Shown: positions 4,565-44,651, counted from the stretch's first letter. The stretch: DNA of 44,651 nucleotides from Myxococcota bacterium (GCA_036337435.1 JAYZEG010000038.1:1-44651); one strand, 5' to 3'. The notes: generated by a model from the sequence alone, not told the origin. Numbers and translations: made by a program.

Positions 4565-5002
4565 ATGAGCGACAAGTGGGACAAACGGTTTCTTGAACTC
4601 GCCGGTCATATCGCAGGGTGGTCTAAAGACCCCTCGACCAAGGTCGGCTGTGTTGTGGTAGGCCAAGACCGAGAGATCAGAAGCACAGGATTCAACGGAT
4701 TTCCGAGGGGCATATCAGACGACCTTGACCGGTTGACTGACCGCGAGCAGAAATATCCACTCATTTGTCATGCTGAAGAAAACGCAATCATGCACGCGGC
4801 GCGCATTGGTGTCTCTCTGAAAGAATGCCGGGCCTATGTGACATGGCCTCCATGCACACGCTGCGCACGCTCCTTGATCCAAGCGGGTGTCGTCGAGGTC
4901 ATTTACCCGGATGGGTGCGATGTGCCCGACCGGTGGGCTGCCGACTTTGATATGTCGATTAACATGATGAACGAGGCGGGCGTCAAGACACGCACCGTCT
5001 AG
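4565..5002 (+). CDS. dCMP deaminase family protein (ComEB/DCTD-like)
   Basis: SKDPSTKVGCV, STGFNGFPRG, HAEENA and PCTRC zinc-deaminase motifs. Confidence 0.92.
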   Translation: MSDKWDKRFLELAGHIAGWSKDPSTKVGCVVVGQDREIRSTGFNGFPRGISDDLDRLTDREQKYPLICHAEENAIMHAARIGVSLKECRAYVTWPPCTRCARSLIQAGVVEVIYPDGCDVPDRWAADFDMSINMMNEAGVKTRTV

Positions 5003-5220
5003 ATACACGCGTTCGAATTCGTCTCCAGATCCAGCTGCTCTGTACGATAGGCTCTCGACCATGAAAATCGACATCGTCTCTGACGGTCCAAAGGCAGGTC
5101 CCTCATATGGACGTTTTTTTGATGCCTATCCCGCGATGGTGTCCCGACTCTGAATGTCCATTTCCCGCTCCATGACCGGCTAATTGGCCATCGTTATGCT
5201 GTCGGTCACTGGTAACTTAC

Positions 5221-5250
5221 TTGCCAAAAGTACATTGAAGTTCCTATCCT
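5221..5250 (+). promoter_or_regulatory. Possible sigma70-type promoter of the xdh operon
   Basis: TTGCCA-N18-TATCCT, 36 nt upstream of xdhA. Confidence 0.35.
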
Positions 5251-5286
5251 CAACAATGCGGCAGGTGAGAGGCAGGACAGGACCTT

Positions 5287-6747
5287 ATGGACCATTCAAT
5301 TATCCTTAACGGGAATCAGGTCAAGGTTGGCGATGTATCGCCAACTATGACGTTGCTGGAGTGGCTCAGACAAACCGGATTTACTGGGACAAAAGAAGGC
5401 TGTGCTGAAGGTGATTGTGGTGCGTGCACAGTCGGCCTTCTCGACGAGGGACCAGACGGGCCAACATGGCGGGCCGTCTGCTCTTGCATTCTGTTGGTTC
5501 CTCAGGCATTTGGTCGCCAGCTGGTGACCGTGGAAGGTTTGGCAACTGGCGAGACTCTTCATCCTGCCCAACAGGCCATGGTTGATAAGCTCGGCTCCCA
5601 ATGTGGCTACTGCACGCCCGGGTTTGTCATGAGCCTCTTCGAGGCGACATATCGCTCAGACCTGGATTCCGATTGGAAAAAGGATGACCAAATCTGCGGT
5701 AATCTGTGTCGTTGCACTGGATACCGGCCGATTCGAGAGGCTCTATACCAAATTGCTGGTAGTCAGCCGGTCGATCGCTTCTCTGACTGTTTGAACACCG
5801 AGTTAGCCATTCCGCCTGTCGATTATCGACGCGGCGAACAACGGTATGTTCGTCCTGAAAAATGGCGGGACCTCTGGGACGCGATGGGAGACGATCCAGT
5901 GCGCTTCGTCAGTGGGGCAACGGACCTCGGCTTGGACGTCACACAGCGTTTCAAGACTTTTCCGCTTCTCGTTGACCTGGGACTGTTGCCAGGCATGCGA
6001 GAGATCAATCCCATCGATGGTGGCTGGCGAATCGGTGCCGGTGTTCTCTTATCCGATTTGGAGGCTTGGTCTGAGTTACATTCTGAGTCTCTCGGGAAGA
6101 TGCTTCGATTTTTCGCGTCACGGCAGATTAAGAATCGTGCAACCGTTGGCGGCAACCTATGCAATGCATCACCTATCGGTGACCTGCCGCCGGTCATGTT
6201 GGCATTGAATGCCGTGGCGGTCATTCGGTCGGAAGCTGGAGAGAGACGGCACGCTTTCTCTCCAACCGACAGCGCCCCTGGGTTCTGGACAGCCTATCGG
6301 CGGACCGTTTTGCGAGATGGAGAGGTTCTCGCTGCTGTTGAAATCCCCGACTTGCATCCCAAGACCTATGCCACGACCTACAAGGTCAGTAAACGGCGTG
6401 AGTTGGATATCAGTGCTGTATCGAGTGCCTTTGCACTCAGGCTAGACGAGTCCGGGACGGTCGCAGACATCCGCCTCGCATTCGGTGGGATGGCGGCGAC
6501 GCCGGCACGCGCCCTAAGAACTGAGTCTATCTTGCGCCATCAGACCCTCAGTCAGTCAACCATCGAACGAGCGATCGAAGCCCTTGGTGATGACTTCAGT
6601 CCCATCGATGACCACCGAGGTACAGCGTGGTACAGGGCCACCGTCGCAGCGAACTTATTGCGTGGTTTTTTTGAAGAAGCGCAGGGGCAGGTGAGTGTAA
6701 CTCTGCCAGACAGGCCAACAGGGACAATCTTTGCGGAGACAAACTGA
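5287..6747 (+). CDS. xdhA: Xanthine dehydrogenase small subunit (2x[2Fe-2S] + FAD)
   Basis: GTKEGCAEGDCGAC, GSQCGYCTPG, GNLCRCTGYRPI, FAD-domain QIKNRATVGGN and ASPIGD, YKVSKRRELDISAV. Confidence 0.95.
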   Translation: MDHSIILNGNQVKVGDVSPTMTLLEWLRQTGFTGTKEGCAEGDCGACTVGLLDEGPDGPTWRAVCSCILLVPQAFGRQLVTVEGLATGETLHPAQQAMVDKLGSQCGYCTPGFVMSLFEATYRSDLDSDWKKDDQICGNLCRCTGYRPIREALYQIAGSQPVDRFSDCLNTELAIPPVDYRRGEQRYVRPEKWRDLWDAMGDDPVRFVSGATDLGLDVTQRFKTFPLLVDLGLLPGMREINPIDGGWRIGAGVLLSDLEAWSELHSESLGKMLRFFASRQIKNRATVGGNLCNASPIGDLPPVMLALNAVAVIRSEAGERRHAFSPTDSAPGFWTAYRRTVLRDGEVLAAVEIPDLHPKTYATTYKVSKRRELDISAVSSAFALRLDESGTVADIRLAFGGMAATPARALRTESILRHQTLSQSTIERAIEALGDDFSPIDDHRGTAWYRATVAANLLRGFFEEAQGQVSVTLPDRPTGTIFAETN

Positions 6748-37654: not shown

Positions 37655-39244
37655 CTATTGTCGAAGTTCGTCCAATTGTGCACTGAGACGGTCGTAAGCC
37701 GCCTGCTGGATAGCAGTAAAGGGCTGTGCAAGCGGCGCGTTCGATTCAGTCGGATCCATAGTGAGATCGATGAGTGCATCCCCGCCCTCGAACCAGCGAA
37801 TCAATTTGAACTGCTGGTCACGTATTGTTCGACCCTCGTGGACTGATTGGGTTGCGTGCAGTAATTCGGAAAGCACAAATTCGCGGACCGGAGGGGAATT
37901 CGGCTCCCGCAGATAGGGCAGCAAGCTGCGGCCATCAATGGCCTCACCGAACGGTGTATCGGCGGGTGGAATTGCACCGGCTAATTCAAGAATCGTAGGG
38001 TAAAGGTCGCTGATGTCGACGACCGCATCAACGGTCCTACCGGGCTCGCTTACTTGCGGGCCGGCGATGACCAGGGGCACATGAATGCCGCCCTGATAGA
38101 GGGTATTTTTTGCTTGTTCTGAACGATAGGTTTCGATGACTTGGCCCGGTGTGCCGTTATCGCCAACAAAGATGACATGCGTGCGTTCCAGATTTGGGTC
38201 ATTGACTGTCTCCAACAGTCGTCCGATTTCCGCATCCAGTGCTTCGATGGACGCGATGTAACAGATGCGCTCGGCACCTGCTGGGCACGCTTCACCTTCC
38301 GGCAGGTTCTGCTGGTGCAGTTGTGGTGGTGGCGTATGAAAGGGTGCATGAGGCGCGTTAAAGCCCATCCATAAGAACCAATGTCCGTCACCTGCATTAA
38401 GCCAATCGATCGCGTCGTCTATGGTATCCGTTGTCACGTAGTTCTCAATCTCCTCCTCGCGTCCATTGACAACCTTCGTATATCGGTAATAGTCCGGTAC
38501 GCCACCGCGTAGTAAGCCTTCGAAGTGTTGGTAACCCATTTGGTTTGGATTATCGGCCCCTCCATTAAGTCGGTATGCCAGATGCCACTTGCCGATATTT
38601 GCGTGCCGGTAAGCCACTGGCGCCAAGGCATCGAGTGCCTTTGGAATGGTGAATTCTTCAAGCCGTATACCGGGAGAATCACCACCCTGAACAGGCGCGA
38701 CAACACCCGTGCGAAAGGGATAGCGCCCCGTGAGAATGGTCGCTCGCGTCGGTGAACAGATTGGATTGGCCCATGCATTTTCAAAGCGGACACCGTTGGC
38801 ACAAATGGCATCTAGATGGGGTGTGTTCGCCGTAGCGGTTGGCCACCCGTAGCAGGGGGCAGCGTCCAGCCCGAGGTCGTCGGCGATCAATAAGAGCACA
38901 TTTGTCGGCTCCAAGTCTGCTGCGGTCTGACCGCCCATACCGCCTTCGCCGCCAGCACCGCCAGCCCCGCTTTCGCCACCAGAACCGCCGGTGCCACCTG
39001 CATCAGCTGCACCTCCAGTGTCCGATGCATCCCCCACGCCCTCTCCGACGTCAGTGGTCGCCATATCGGAGGTGCGCTCAACGCGCATATCGTCTATGCC
39101 AACATCCCTGTTTTGGCCACGATCAAGTTGAGTGGCTGATAAATCTACCTCCAGACCAGAGTCACTGGTTGGCGAGGAGTTTGTATCGCCCTCGCATCCG
39201 TAGGGCATCAGCAAAAGTATGATCAAGGCAGCAAATGGCTTCAT
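37655..39244 (-). CDS. Sulfatase (formylglycine-dependent S1 family) lipoprotein
   Basis: LLLMPYG-C lipobox, Gly-rich linker, NVLLLIADDLG, TPHLD, CSPTRATILTGRY, GKWHL, NAPHAP, GDNG, LYQGGIHVP, DLYPTIL, IDGRSL. Confidence 0.93.
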   Translation of the reverse strand: MKPFAALIILLLMPYGCEGDTNSSPTSDSGLEVDLSATQLDRGQNRDVGIDDMRVERTSDMATTDVGEGVGDASDTGGAADAGGTGGSGGESGAGGAGGEGGMGGQTAADLEPTNVLLLIADDLGLDAAPCYGWPTATANTPHLDAICANGVRFENAWANPICSPTRATILTGRYPFRTGVVAPVQGGDSPGIRLEEFTIPKALDALAPVAYRHANIGKWHLAYRLNGGADNPNQMGYQHFEGLLRGGVPDYYRYTKVVNGREEEIENYVTTDTIDDAIDWLNAGDGHWFLWMGFNAPHAPFHTPPPQLHQQNLPEGEACPAGAERICYIASIEALDAEIGRLLETVNDPNLERTHVIFVGDNGTPGQVIETYRSEQAKNTLYQGGIHVPLVIAGPQVSEPGRTVDAVVDISDLYPTILELAGAIPPADTPFGEAIDGRSLLPYLREPNSPPVREFVLSELLHATQSVHEGRTIRDQQFKLIRWFEGGDALIDLTMDPTESNAPLAQPFTAIQQAAYDRLSAQLDELRQ

Positions 39245-40549: not shown

Positions 40550-41149
40550 ATGACAAAACCCGGTATGATTGTTCTTTCCATTCTCGTTTCATGTCTGCTC
40601 TCAGCTTGTTCGAAAAACGCCGATCCGTTACCACCACCAAAACCTGAGGTCGAGAAGGGCACGGACACGGCAGCAAAAGAACCAGTGAAAACACCTCAAA
40701 CTAACTCGACTCAGGCGGTGGCGGCAAAAAAGGAGCTCGTTGCCTACAGCAACTTGGCCAAGTCACTCCTAGAGTCGAGTAAGGCAACTAAAGGCCCCCA
40801 AGTCGTTGGGGTCCTGGCCGAGGAGTTGGTCAGCATTGGCGAACGAATCGCATCAGCGTTTTCAAAAAAACATGCTGGCTGTCGTGCTTACTTGGGGGCA
40901 CTTCTCGCGGCGTCAAAAAAGCTGACATCCCTGTCACTCGATGCGATTGAGCGGGATTATCATGCCGACGGGAAACTACCTAAAAGTCCAGATGATAAGT
41001 GCTATCACGCCAAAGACTTGGTCGTTCATCCGGCCACGGTTGTCATTTTGAGTCGTCAAGGCTTGACTGGGAAAGAACAGAGAGACAAGGCAACCGGTGA
41101 AATCGCTGAAGTTCTTGCCCACTTGAGTGACGTAGAAAGACATCTCTGA
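40550..41149 (+). CDS. Hypothetical lipoprotein, helical, with several His/acidic motifs
   Basis: LLSA-C lipobox, Pro/Lys/Thr linker, IERDYHADG, CYHAKDLVVHPATV, EVLAHL. AGAGGT upstream. Confidence 0.8.
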   Translation: MTKPGMIVLSILVSCLLSACSKNADPLPPPKPEVEKGTDTAAKEPVKTPQTNSTQAVAAKKELVAYSNLAKSLLESSKATKGPQVVGVLAEELVSIGERIASAFSKKHAGCRAYLGALLAASKKLTSLSLDAIERDYHADGKLPKSPDDKCYHAKDLVVHPATVVILSRQGLTGKEQRDKATGEIAEVLAHLSDVERHL

Positions 41150-41195: not shown

Positions 41196-42065
41196 CTAGG
41201 ACGATACTGCATTTCGGGCGCGAACGGTCACATCGATCATGGCTTGCCTCAGGCTATCTCGAGAGATTTCATATCCGAAGGATGTGTAGATTAAACGAGG
41301 CTCTGCGGCGATTTCGCAGAAAAATCCCCGGCTGTCCAACCCCGTCATTTTAATCGAGTTTGGCTCCAATCCATGGAGATTTCGGCAGATGAGCTCGAGG
41401 GCATCCCTGTGGTCGTCGTTCATATGTTCGATGGCGCCCGCGGCTACGTCGGCCAGTTCATCAGTCTTTTCCCGGCCCAGTAGCTCGTGTCCATCAAACC
41501 AACAAATTCGCCCGAACCCAGCGATGTAGCGGACCTTCTTGATGTCCCGAAGTCTCCAGAAGTTAAAGTCATGCGTCTGAAAGTAGCTGTCGCTCTTCGG
41601 CACCCGCTCTCGGTATCGTGCCTTCAGCGCGATGAATTCGTCTTCGGAAATGGCTGTTTGGTAGGGTTTCAAGTGCCGGGCTGTTGGCGAAGATTCAACG
41701 ACGAGCATTTCCATGTGGCCCACCAAAGTGGCTCGCCATTGCGCCTGCGGATCGCCTTTCGCGATACCTTGCCGTATGAACAGATTGCACCGTGTATCTT
41801 TCTTCAAGTTTTGTGTGTGGGCAGCAATATGTGCGATGAGCACATAGGGAGCCCCGTTTGAGTCGATGGCGAAGGGGACGACCGAATTGACTGGGAAGCC
41901 CGATAAATCTGGTTTTGCCCCTAAAGTCCCTAAAGTTGCGACATGAACGTCTTGCAGCCACTGCTTTACGTGGGTGGCCGGTTCGCTGCGTTGTGCCTGT
42001 CTGGACGCGGAGTCGATTTCTTGTTGCTGTGCTGTTGTTAGCTCTTGGTCACTCATCGCATTCAC
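41196..42065 (-). CDS. HugZ-like heme utilization protein (PNPO-like split barrel + DUF2470-type domain)
   Basis: ATLGTL, GFPVNSVVPFA, IAAHTQNL, THDFNFWRL, RYIAGFGRI, AIEHMNDDHRDAL, GLDSRG. Start at GTG 42065 or ATG 42056. Confidence 0.85.
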   Translation of the reverse strand: MNAMSDQELTTAQQQEIDSASRQAQRSEPATHVKQWLQDVHVATLGTLGAKPDLSGFPVNSVVPFAIDSNGAPYVLIAHIAAHTQNLKKDTRCNLFIRQGIAKGDPQAQWRATLVGHMEMLVVESSPTARHLKPYQTAISEDEFIALKARYRERVPKSDSYFQTHDFNFWRLRDIKKVRYIAGFGRICWFDGHELLGREKTDELADVAAGAIEHMNDDHRDALELICRNLHGLEPNSIKMTGLDSRGFFCEIAAEPRLIYTSFGYEISRDSLRQAMIDVTVRARNAVSS

Positions 42066-42277
42066 ACTGCTTTCTTTGGGTCATCTTGACTCTGTTTGGT
42101 CGACGGGTTTGGTCAGGCCTTTGAGCATTCCGGACATCTCGTTTTCATGTCAATCCTTGGCATTGAATCGAATCGTTTTACACGAATCGGCTGCACTGGT
42201 TTTCGATGCGCCTAGAGTAGCCAATATCGCCGTCGTGTCACGCTATTGAACATCGCAAACTGGCGCAACCAAATAAT

Positions 42278-42306
42278 TAAATTGAAAATCATTATCAAAA
42301 TCATTA
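42278..42306. promoter_or_regulatory. Fur box in the divergent hugZ-like / lipoprotein-TBDR promoter region
   Basis: TAAATTGAAAATCATTATC matches GATAATGATAATCATTATC at 15/19. The 7-1-7 core TGAAAAT-C-ATTATCA has one mismatch. AAAATCATTA repeats 12 nt later. AT-rich island. Confidence 0.8.
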
Positions 42307-42371
42307 AATATACAGCACAGGTGTACGATGTCTTTCTCTTTCGCGCTCTCCATGGTTTAGGATTTTCTGAG

Positions 42372-43034
42372 ATGAAGCTTTTCAATTTGACCTACTTTCT
42401 AGGTTTTGTGCTGATTGTTGGCTGTGGTTCTGACAACGACGATTCGCCCGATGACAATGGGGGTGGCGGCAGTGCCGGGGTCGTTGGCAATGGCGAGGTT
42501 GGCGGTCAAGAGTCCGCTGGGAGCGCCGGGGCTGCTGGGGAATCGATGCTGGACGCAGCAACGGATGGAACTGGTGGCACTGGTGGTGCGGCAGGTGCCG
42601 GTGGTGCTGATGGTCCGACTGACGGCGGTAATACGAGCACCGATGGGTCTGGTTGCTATAACCAAAATAGCCATATGTGTAATTGTGCCATCAGTGAAAA
42701 CACCTGCGCAGAATCTGGTGGTGTTTGGACTCAACAGTGTGCATGTGACAACGGCAACCCAGGTGGTGGCCAACACCATGGTGATGGGGGTGCATCAGGT
42801 TGCTATGACCCCGTCAGTCACATGTGTGATTGTGACGTAGATGATGTGACTTGTACCGACCAAAGCGGCATATGGACAGATCGATGTGGGTGTGATGAGA
42901 ACGACCAGGGGGGTGGTTCTGCCGCCGATGGCTCAGGGTGCTACGACATTTCGATCCACATGTGTGATTGCGACACCAATGAGTCCGCATGTGGCGAATC
43001 CGGCGGGATTTGGACCGATATGTGTGGATGTTAA
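42372..43034 (+). CDS. Lipoprotein with Gly-rich linker and three 6-Cys His-Met repeats
   Basis: AGGA upstream of ATG 42372, MKLFNLTYFLGFVLIVG-C lipobox, three GCYx4HMCxCx6Cx4G(V/I)WTx2CxC units. Confidence 0.85.
   Translation: MKLFNLTYFLGFVLIVGCGSDNDDSPDDNGGGGSAGVVGNGEVGGQESAGSAGAAGESMLDAATDGTGGTGGAAGAGGADGPTDGGNTSTDGSGCYNQNSHMCNCAISENTCAESGGVWTQQCACDNGNPGGGQHHGDGGASGCYDPVSHMCDCDVDDVTCTDQSGIWTDRCGCDENDQGGGSAADGSGCYDISIHMCDCDTNESACGESGGIWTDMCGC
42651..43031 (+). repeat. Three intragenic copies of a 32-aa Cys-rich module
   Basis: GCYNQNSHMCNC...WTQQCAC / GCYDPVSHMCDC...WTDRCGC / GCYDISIHMCDC...WTDMCGC. Confidence 0.9.
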
Positions 43035-43063
43035 TCCACTGACGGAAAGCCACAAAATTGGTC

Positions 43064-44651
43064 ATGAGTTCATCTTTTTCAACGTGGGTTAGAGCCTCCT
43101 TAATCAGTGGTTTATGTGCAGTCGCACCTGGCATTTGGACAAGTGCCTTTGCTCAACCAAGCGACGTGACCTCGCCCGCCGATCCCACAGACGATTCGCA
43201 AGCAGATGCTCGTGAAAACGACATGATTGTCACCGGCACTCGGACACCTCAGCGCCGCGCGGACAGTCCAATTTCGACGGAGGTCATCACCCGCGAAGAA
43301 ATCGAGAACAGTGGCGCGACCAATCTGGGACAATTGATGGCCAATACGGCTGGCGTACAAGTCCAACGTACCTTTGCTGGCGTGGGTCTTGCCTTACAAG
43401 GGCTCGATGCGAAGCATACCTTAGTGTTGCTCGATGGAAACCGGCTCCCTGGTTCAAAAGATGGTGTCTTCGATATCGAACGGCTCAATCTTGAAAACAT
43501 CGAACGGGTTGAGATTTTAAGGGGGGCAGGGTCGGCGCTTTATGGTGCCGATGCATTAGGCGGCGTCGTGAACATCATCACGCGCAAAGAGTCTCGAAAG
43601 GACCATGTGAGGTCTCATTTACAGACTTTTCTAGGCAATGATAAATCATCGGAGACAATGGGTCGATTCAGTACTCGGCAGGGCAGCGTCTCTGGCACTT
43701 TGTCTGGTGGATATCACTGGTTGCCCGCCTTTAGAGTGGACTCGGACGATAGGGCCAGCGACAACGCCACCGATGGCAGTTCTATCGAAGATTGGTATAT
43801 TCGAAGCCTTGGAAGAGTTGATCTTGTCAAGCGGTCCCGACTCAATGCGGGCCTCGAGTATTCAAAGCGACAGAGGGCTGGTGTTGACGCATCGGAGAGC
43901 GGTGCTGTCTTTGACCGGCGTCAAGTCGTAGATATGTACGACGCCTTCATTAGTTTTGAGCATAAGGCGGATGGCGGAGACCGGTTCGTTTCATCCCTTC
44001 GATACAATTACCTCCGCGATCAATTTCTCATGGATCAGCGGTTGTCCGATAGGCGGGACAAGTATGAGGATTCAAGGCTTCAGTATACCCAAGGCAACGG
44101 ACAGACCGACCTACAACTGCCCGCGCAAAATGTCCTAAGCCTTGGCGTTGATGGGATCTTTGAGACGGCTGATAATCCGAGGATTATCAGAAACGACGAC
44201 TGTGATTTTGAGTCGCCATCGACATTGTGCAGAACGGCTGATCGGTATCGCGGTGCAGTCTATCTGCAAAACGTTTGGACCATACTCAGCGACCCATATC
44301 TTGTTCTCGTTGCCGGCAGCCGGCTCGAGGGGGACAGCCGGTTTGGTTACGTCACCGTCCCCCGCATCGCGCTCCGTTATGACCCGATAGATTCATTGAC
44401 GCTACGGACCAGCATCGGCCAAGGGTATCGAGCCCCCTCCTTCAAGGAATTGTATCTTCGATTCGACAATCCAAGTGTGGGCTACACAGTCAGGGGCAAT
44501 GATGAGCTGGAGCCTGAATTGTCCATGAGCTATCAGATAGGCGCCGACCTGACGCTCAGTTCCTTCGCCAGTGTCTACGTGAATTTGTTTAGAAACGAGG
44601 TTGAGGGTCTCATTGATTATGATTTGGTCACGCCGGGCACTGCCGATGGCA
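43064..44651 (+). CDS. TonB-dependent outer membrane receptor (3' truncated by the window; not in the ORF track)
   Basis: Hand translation of the 5' part: signal peptide MSSSF...SAFA, DMIVTGTRT TonB-box region, EVITREEIE, LQGLDAKHTLVLLDG, IERVEILRGAGSALYGADALGGVVNIIT plug signature. Later barrel motif GYRAPSFKELY...LEPE. The middle was not checked codon by codon. Confidence 0.93.
   Translation, partial: MSSSFSTWVRASLISGLCAVAPGIWTSAFAQPSDVTSPADPTDDSQADARENDMIVTGTRTPQRRADSPISTEVITREEIENSGATNLGQLMANTAGVQVQRTFAGVGLALQGLDAKHTLVLLDGNRLPGSKDGVFDIERLNLENIERVEILRGAGSALYGADALGGVVNIITRKESRKDHVRSHLQTFLGNDKSSETMGRFSTRQGSVSGTLSGGYHWLPAFRVDSDDRASDNATDGSSIEDWYIRSLGRVDLVKRSRLNAGLEYSKRQRAGVDASESGAVFDRRQVVDMYDAFISFEHKADGGDRFVSSLRYNYLRDQFLMDQRLSDRRDKYEDSRLQYTQGNGQTDLQLPAQNVLSLGVDGIFETADNPRIIRNDDCDFESPSTLCRTADRYRGAVYLQNVWTILSDPYLVLVAGSRLEGDSRFGYVTVPRIALRYDPIDSLTLRTSIGQGYRAPSFKELYLRFDNPSVGYTVRGNDELEPELSMSYQIGADLTLSSFASVYVNLFRNEVEGLIDYDLVTPGTADG

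Follow-up and report, generated by a model that had tools for sequence, protein, structure and literature searches.

The window, as the whole stretch of DNA analysed here will be called, is the entire contig C38 (44,651 nucleotides; GCA_036337435.1 JAYZEG010000038.1) of the genome of a Myxococcota bacterium, referred to below as G000. From position 41,196 to its end it carries a HugZ-like gene on the minus strand, a divergent intergenic region with a Fur-like operator, an open reading frame (ORF; 42372-43034, plus strand) whose translation is a lipoprotein of 220 amino acids, and the 5′ part of a gene for a TonB-dependent receptor. The lipoprotein, here P0001, contains three copies of a module of 31 residues with six Cys. 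Both this six-Cys module and the beads-only architecture of the lipoprotein are new to every library tested, whereas the surrounding uptake system is of a known type, and the link of the lipoprotein to a heme or tetrapyrrole uptake system is well supported.

By inspection, the N-terminus of the protein (MKLF...FVLIVGC) ends in the lipobox IVGC, whose Cys18 would be the lipidated residue. The signal and lipobox stretch, MKLFNLTYFLGFVLIVGC, is that of a bacterial lipoprotein, and Cys18 is invariant in 13 aligned orthologues. The original prediction, made from the window sequence, had described a Gly/Asp tether carrying three modules, and the translation bears this out: each copy is 31 residues long and reads C-Y-x4-H-M-C-x-C-x6-C-x6-W-T-x2-C-x-C, with all six Cys, the Tyr, the His-Met pair and the Trp-Thr pair in place. 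The last Cys of module 3 is also the end of the protein, the stop codon lying at 43032-43034. The CxxCH motif of heme attachment in c-type cytochromes was not found on inspection of the 220-residue translation, in which the His precedes the CxC pair. AlphaFold2 models of a single module, calculated from a 15-row alignment, reach a mean predicted local distance difference test (pLDDT) of 89.8, with four of the five at 88 or above, and have a strand-strand-helix-strand (beta-beta-alpha-beta) fold. In the full-length model the three beads have pLDDT values of 89-95, residues 25-87, 128-138 and 178-184 fall below 50, and the predicted template modelling score is 0.26; on this model the lipoprotein is predicted to be a string of beads. 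As every context in which the module occurs is extracytoplasmic, its Cys residues are presumed to form three disulfides.

Right after the lipid-bearing Cys, runs of Asp and Ser (CGSDNDD, CGDDDND and similar) occur in the window protein (42426-42450) and at the N-termini of P0002, P0004, P0037, P0047 and P0052. Such runs resemble the acidic export signal of Bacteroidota surface lipoproteins. A comparable long Gly-rich tether past the lipobox is found in a sulfatase-family lipoprotein of the window (37655-39244, minus strand), so that tethers of this kind appear to be a habit of the lipoproteins of this organism and not a speciality of the module protein. Between their modules, P0085, P0082, P0002 and the product of positions 4703-5560 (minus strand) of locus L010 have linkers with much His, Asp and Glu, including runs of the HGHEGHGH kind; these His-rich linkers are not conserved, and the window protein has a single HH pair (42762-42770).

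The six-Cys module is a real domain family and not low complexity. A phmmer search against 1.84 billion representative sequences returned 60 clusters at E ≤ 1e-3, 17 of them at E ≤ 1e-10. No Pfam family (E ≤ 0.01) and no NCBIfam family was found for P0001, and no Pfam model overlaps the module in any of the 60 homologues, in libraries that include metallothionein, EGF-like, knottin-like, carbohydrate-binding and Myxococcus cysteine-rich repeat models. A profile search of PDB sequences with the module gave no match at E ≤ 10, and residues 90-220 gave no usable match in the ESM Atlas. At the level of structure, Foldseek against the PDB gave no match at E ≤ 10 and the best VIA-align score among 48,161 chains was a Z of 2.1, to FlhA, which is not meaningful; the module model, of 36 residues, is so small that both searches have little power and say little on the novelty of the fold. 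Full-text searches of the literature on HmuY in Myxococcota, which returned no paper at all, on HmuY with cysteine-rich repeats and on hemophores of marine Myxococcota found no description of the module, and a preprint on cysteine-rich repeats (10.64898/2026.06.07.730663) deals with fungal repeats that have no evident link to it. The family was thus rightly taken as an unrecognised one in the original prediction. Counted over the 165 unique modules of P0001-P0061, the six Cys are conserved at 88-99%, Trp at 91%, His at 90% and Tyr at 85% (with Phe in another 9%), followed by Thr (80%), Glu (73%) and Asp (66%). One candidate role, that of a C-terminal sorting signal, came up in view of the bacterial members, whose sequence stops at the final Cys; it was rejected, since the module is repeated, has internal and N-terminal copies and precedes transmembrane helices in eukaryotic proteins.

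Named members of the family are proteins from Myxococcota metagenome-assembled genomes, proteins of several Symbiodinium species and MMETSP transcripts. The eukaryotic-looking members, grouped by eye, carry a signal peptide that lacks a lipobox, and arrays of modules, often followed by a transmembrane helix and a tail; in some of them CxxC replaces the last CxC. No Pfam domain was found in the seven large eukaryote-like members tested. The arrays of Symbiodinium and other marine protists (P0028, P0071-P0078, P0087, P0090 and P0036) often alternate the module with a second Cys-rich variant, between the signal peptide and the transmembrane helix. On the bacterial side, the module was detected in two of the 401 species-representative genomes of a phylum sample (G000 and G002) and in three of the 113 genomes of the class (G000, G002 and G003), all of one genus, and a search of genome contigs with P0001 alone returned only a contig of G002. 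A fourth genome of the genus, G001, which is 100% complete, has neither the module nor an orthologue of the receptor at E ≤ 1e-20, which indicates that gain or loss concerned the whole unit. The window stretch itself is held at a share of at least 0.22 by ten sequencing runs from seven studies, nine of the runs being labelled as marine or seawater metagenomes.

The strongest clue to what the module may do is given by its fusions to other domains. When a profile of 40 modules was run against longer proteins, 40 hits were obtained at E ≤ 0.001, of which 14 contain an HmuY domain (PF14064), one a CvpA domain and 25 no Pfam domain, which makes HmuY the sole recurrent fusion partner among these hits. 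Among the 60 phmmer hits, seven have HmuY at E ≤ 0.01, six of them above the gathering score. Four clusters (P0039, P0048, P0095 and P0096) have the module within their third HmuY-like domain, as in P0048, where this domain spans 385-533 and the inserted module 460-490. Moreover, HmuY fusions contribute 22 unique modules, and in these the conservation of Tyr, His, Asp, Trp and Thr is 100% at every one of the five positions. A different fusion was observed in P0105, a homologue of the window receptor (46% identical) with one module between its signal peptide and its TonB box, the sole case among 120 listed homologues.

The same partners come together in the operons of relatives. In two genomes of the same genus as G000, G002 (locus L009) and G003 (locus L010), the order is a divergent HugZ-like gene, a module lipoprotein, the receptor, a second lipoprotein with HmuY domain and modules, a Peripla_BP_2 binding protein, a FecCD permease and an ATPase of the ATP-binding cassette (ABC) type. 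The first lipoprotein has four modules in these genomes and the receptor is of 680 or 685 amino acids; the second lipoprotein has an HmuY domain, scored at 35.2 and 41.8 bits (cut-off 27), ahead of three modules or one. This HmuY-like domain matches the solved chains 8b6a and 3h8t (HmuY) by sequence. A scan of metagenome contigs with a degenerate pattern, which selected modules of the His-Met type, retrieved six loci on five contigs. Parts of the arrangement are present in L022, L023, L026 and L027, which jointly hold the CREG/DUF2470 gene, the receptor, the HmuY-module protein and the binding protein, and the ORF sizes of L024 and L025 are identical to those of G002, so that they probably come from the same population as it. 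The hidden Markov model and neighbourhood search proposed with the original prediction therefore came out for a heme link, operons with HmuY, receptor and HmuTUV-like genes being found in every locus retrieved.

The receptor gene of the window, which was expected 29 nt beyond the lipoprotein gene, is indeed separated by that distance, from the stop codon at 43034 to an ATG at 43064 (TTG at 43058 being another possible start), and its product has both Plug and barrel domains and is 82% identical to the complete orthologue of 680 residues in G002. A complex prediction for the G002 receptor (residues 32-680, 73 rows) and the G002 module lipoprotein (residues 90-266, 12 rows) scored 0.00 and 0.00, the mark being 0.32; having been run with no controls, it counts neither way. 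The divergent gene had been called HugZ-like. This holds at the superfamily level, where the split barrel and DUF2470 are shared with HugZ, HutZ and HOZ proteins and the solved PDB relatives are PA4388, the heme-binding MSMEG_6519, AT3G03890 and PtHOZ1, among the closest being MSMEG_6519 and plant HOZ. On the other hand, the NCBIfam scores of 39.6 for HugZ (cut-off 240) and 36.1 for HutZ (cut-off 225) are far below those of equivalogs; the protein is therefore a superfamily relative and no HugZ orthologue, and its role as a heme oxygenase is putative. It is a candidate for the binding or degradation of heme in the cytoplasm. Between a peroxiredoxin gene and the HugZ-like gene, the window also encodes a lipoprotein of 199 amino acids (40550-41149, plus strand) without a Pfam or NCBIfam family; it is kept in G002 (L009, 4454-5056), and at the equivalent place of L026 it is missing, the peroxiredoxin coming directly after the HugZ-like gene.

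Table 1. Features of the uptake locus in the window (positions counted from the first nucleotide of the contig).
Feature	Position	Strand	Basis and remarks
HugZ/HOZ-like split-barrel + DUF2470 protein, 289 aa, divergent	41196..42065	-	CREG_beta-barrel 48.1 bits, DUF2470 38.9 bits
Fur-like operator, divergent intergenic region	42278..42308		core TTGAAAATCATTATCAAAATCA at 42282-42303; two overlapping 15/19 matches
Lipoprotein signal peptide, lipobox IVGC (Cys18), putative	42372..42425	+	translation and inspection; predicted helix at residues 2-16
Gly/Asp/Ala-rich tether, predicted disordered, residues 19-91 (composition continuing to about residue 93; roughly 75 residues)	42426..42644	+	translation; pLDDT <50 at residues 25-87
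Six-Cys module 1, residues 95-125	42654..42746	+	pLDDT about 89-95, beta-beta-alpha-beta
Six-Cys module 2, residues 144-174	42801..42893	+	single-module model, pLDDT 89.8
Six-Cys module 3, residues 190-220	42939..43031	+	pattern match and full-length model
TonB-dependent receptor, 5′ part (Plug and barrel), gene cut by the contig end	43064..44651	+	Pfam Plug 91 bits, barrel 102 bits

With respect to regulation, a strong Fur box had been claimed for the divergent intergenic region. A conserved Fur-like box is present there, less strong than claimed: the canonical 19-mer consensus has no match in the window at up to three mismatches, and the best sites are two overlapping 15/19 matches at 42278 (plus strand) and 42284 (minus strand). 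Their 22-bp core, TTGAAAATCATTATCAAAATCA, is unique in the window and is matched in none of 100 shuffles. In four of the five aligned orthologous intergenic regions (those of the window, G002, G003 and L026) this core forms a conserved island amid diverged DNA; a pattern search found it as well in L024, whose arrangement repeats that of G002, and a diverged copy of the operator occurs in L022. The genome encodes a single Fur-family protein (G000:C69, 119 bits). Genome-wide, 15/19 matches to the consensus amount to 20 strand hits, the two of the window included, and a wider Fur regulon was not found among eight other such sites examined, six of which fall within ORFs of 110 amino acids or more. 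A generic scan for sigma-70 promoters and terminators between 42000 and 43200 gave nothing above shuffles. Fur control of the unit of lipoprotein and receptor may reasonably be supposed from these data. As for expression, two metatranscriptome runs from seawater contain contigs that match the window at 99% or better over 42678-42876 in the lipoprotein gene and 43587-43793 in the receptor gene, each only about 200 nt, the uncovered parts carrying no meaning; they are a weak hint of expression, because DNA can occur in RNA libraries.

Altogether, the evidence supports the locus as a putative TonB uptake unit of the iron/heme type that is preceded by a conserved Fur-like operator, and we infer both the cellular location of the lipoprotein and heme binding by its six-Cys module. 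With confidence about evenly balanced between acceptance and rejection, the lipoprotein is read here as accessory to a heme uptake system of the HmuY/TonB type, and its disulfide-stapled beads would handle or relay heme by means of their His and Tyr, with stacking on the Trp. The host is a marine member of the Myxococcota, and the operon would be one for Fur-type-regulated acquisition of heme (tetrapyrrole) of the HmuY/HmuR kind, in which a lipid anchor and a disordered tether would hold the three six-Cys beads. Each bead would most likely bind or relay heme or iron-porphyrin through its conserved His and Tyr, the Trp offering a stacking face, and the beads would in this way raise the local capture capacity where the receptor and the HmuY-like hemophore domain lie. 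From there the substrate would pass to the HmuT/U/V-like ABC importer and on to the cytoplasmic HugZ/HOZ-like protein.

A number of observations weigh against this accessory role in heme uptake. The original prediction had pointed to His, Met and Tyr as usual axial ligands of heme and had regarded the Tyr, His-Met, Trp and six Cys as invariant, which is so within the protein and the genus; across the family, Met follows His in only 15% of the 165 modules, making the His-Met pair a feature of the clade and not of the family, and an argument from His-Met as axial ligands is not supported. A domain of 31 residues is small for a heme pocket and would probably have to team up with a second module or with HmuY. 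The substrate of the receptor is assigned from context, given that the best NCBIfam matches of its G002 orthologue, the TonB-hemin model (TIGR01785; 160 bits, cut-off 316.85) and the B12 receptor model (155 bits, cut-off 599.7), score alike and in both cases below the cut-off. No HmuY was found in G000, and the full operon of this organism is read from its relatives; this null is no surprise with a contig that breaks off within the receptor gene and an assembly that is 87% complete. Besides, the retrieved loci all belong to one clade, and their synteny counts as conservation, not as independent recurrence. The segment of a TonB-dependent receptor before its TonB box is periplasmic. The module of P0105, in that position, indicates that a capture role at the surface alone is not general, and the multivalent surface hemophore originally envisaged keeps the heme link given by the HmuY fusions and operons but does not fit this case as a purely surface protein. 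Finally, HmuY-like domains were found in 39 of the 113 class genomes, in 38 of them above the cut-off, compared with three genomes for the module, so that HmuY systems work without the module, which is an add-on and not a requirement. In the class genomes such HmuY-like domains often come two or three in tandem per frame, for instance in L052-L061. What stands of the original prediction as a whole is the Fur-like operator, the heme-type TonB locus and the undescribed family; the His-Met argument and the surface-only hemophore are not supported.

A more specific version of the accessory role, which can be put forward only tentatively and is on balance doubtful, takes the module as a new, minimal, disulfide-stapled domain for heme or iron-porphyrin with His and Tyr as ligands of the metal, perhaps with heme sandwiched between two beads or between a bead and HmuY. 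It would be common to different domains of life, acting as a multivalent antenna of HmuY/TonB uptake in marine Myxococcota and, in arrays on membrane-anchored surface proteins, as a so far unrecognised receptor scavenging heme or iron in Symbiodinium and other marine protists. The alternative that survives best, although rather unlikely, is that the module binds no small ligand and is a rigid, disulfide-stapled bead for docking or spacing, which would keep both the lipoprotein and HmuY at the receptor, at a different envelope partner or at a fixed distance from the membrane. The predicted beads on a string with disordered linkers would suit such a role, as would the frequency of module-free HmuY systems and the varied positions of the module (C-terminal to HmuY, within HmuY, at the N-terminus of a receptor, before a eukaryotic transmembrane helix), which are typical of a generic adaptor. 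However, the Tyr, His, Trp and Thr are 80-100% conserved in an otherwise variable frame of 31 residues, which goes beyond the needs of a spacer, the sole recurrent fusion partner is a heme-binding domain, and no partner protein for docking was identified.

An improbable explanation is that the Cys are thiolate ligands instead of disulfides, in a metallothionein-like bead (CxC...CxC plus His) that would take up free Fe, Cu or Zn, as in the metal-capture alternative already raised in the original prediction. Two CxC motifs and a His per module are compatible with it, and so are the His/Asp/Glu-rich linkers of P0085, P0082 and P0002 and the HH pair of the window protein. Yet the contexts of the module are extracytoplasmic and oxidising (lipoproteins, the N-terminal part of a receptor, and the ectodomains of eukaryotic proteins that have a signal peptide and are anchored by a transmembrane segment), some eukaryotic members have the CxxC already mentioned instead of the last CxC, the AlphaFold2 fold is compact and confident without metal, and the importer and the fusion partner are of the heme/tetrapyrrole type. 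Still less probable is a small carbohydrate-binding or adhesion domain tethering capture proteins to the own surface or to that of prey or algae, in the manner of aromatic-faced mini-modules (fungal CBM1, hevein), which the module resembles by size and aromatic residues only. Its small size, richness in disulfides, conserved Tyr and Trp and presence on eukaryotic cell-surface proteins speak for this reading. Against it, no Pfam carbohydrate-binding family was found in P0001 or any of the 60 homologues, and the insertion into HmuY and the fusion before the TonB box would be hard to explain.

Returning to the accessory role in heme uptake, the closest known system is HmuY/HmuR of Porphyromonas gingivalis, with which the window shares a lipoprotein encoded beside a TonB-dependent receptor in what would be a heme-uptake operon. 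The likeness is greater in the operons of the relatives, which hold a bona fide HmuY-like domain and have the six-Cys module fused to it. In the accounts of P. gingivalis HmuY given in PMC12106395 and PMC2671838, heme is ligated by two His in an all-beta domain of roughly 190 amino acids. The window lipoprotein scores with no HmuY profile (PF14064), being built only of six-Cys modules, and its unit consists of 31 residues with six Cys, in contrast to the large all-beta domain of HmuY; furthermore, the operon of the relatives differs from that of HmuY/HmuR in using an HmuTUV-like ABC importer and a HugZ/HOZ-like protein. BtuG, TbpB and SusD are surface lipoproteins that capture ligands for TonB-dependent transporters by means of large folded domains capping the receptor. 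The window protein resembles them in its co-oriented gene next to that of a receptor, its lipid anchor and a presumed hand-over of the ligand, and differs as a flexible string of mini-domains without a family match, whose exposure at the surface is putative. The low-complexity, histidine-rich proteins HRP2 and histidine-rich glycoprotein bind heme or metals. Similarity to them is limited to the His/Asp/Glu-rich linkers of some orthologues, which are a side feature and not the module.

In the iron-poor ocean heme is a major source of iron, and the known heme-capture proteins (HasA, HmuY, NEAT, HusA) are for the most part those of pathogens and gut bacteria. HmuY-like proteins in particular are described as mainly from Bacteroidota in PMC12583661, despite which HmuY-like domains are common in this class of Myxococcota. 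The six-Cys module adds to this picture a compact and easily expressed domain family, absent from the libraries, that is joined to HmuY domains and TonB receptors in marine Myxococcota and is present in Symbiodinium as well. If its binding of heme proves true, it would be among the smallest natural heme-binding folds, and it would suggest that dinoflagellates, coral symbionts included, have an uptake route that has gone unrecognised. If the module binds no heme, it would still be a new accessory module of TonB-dependent uptake.

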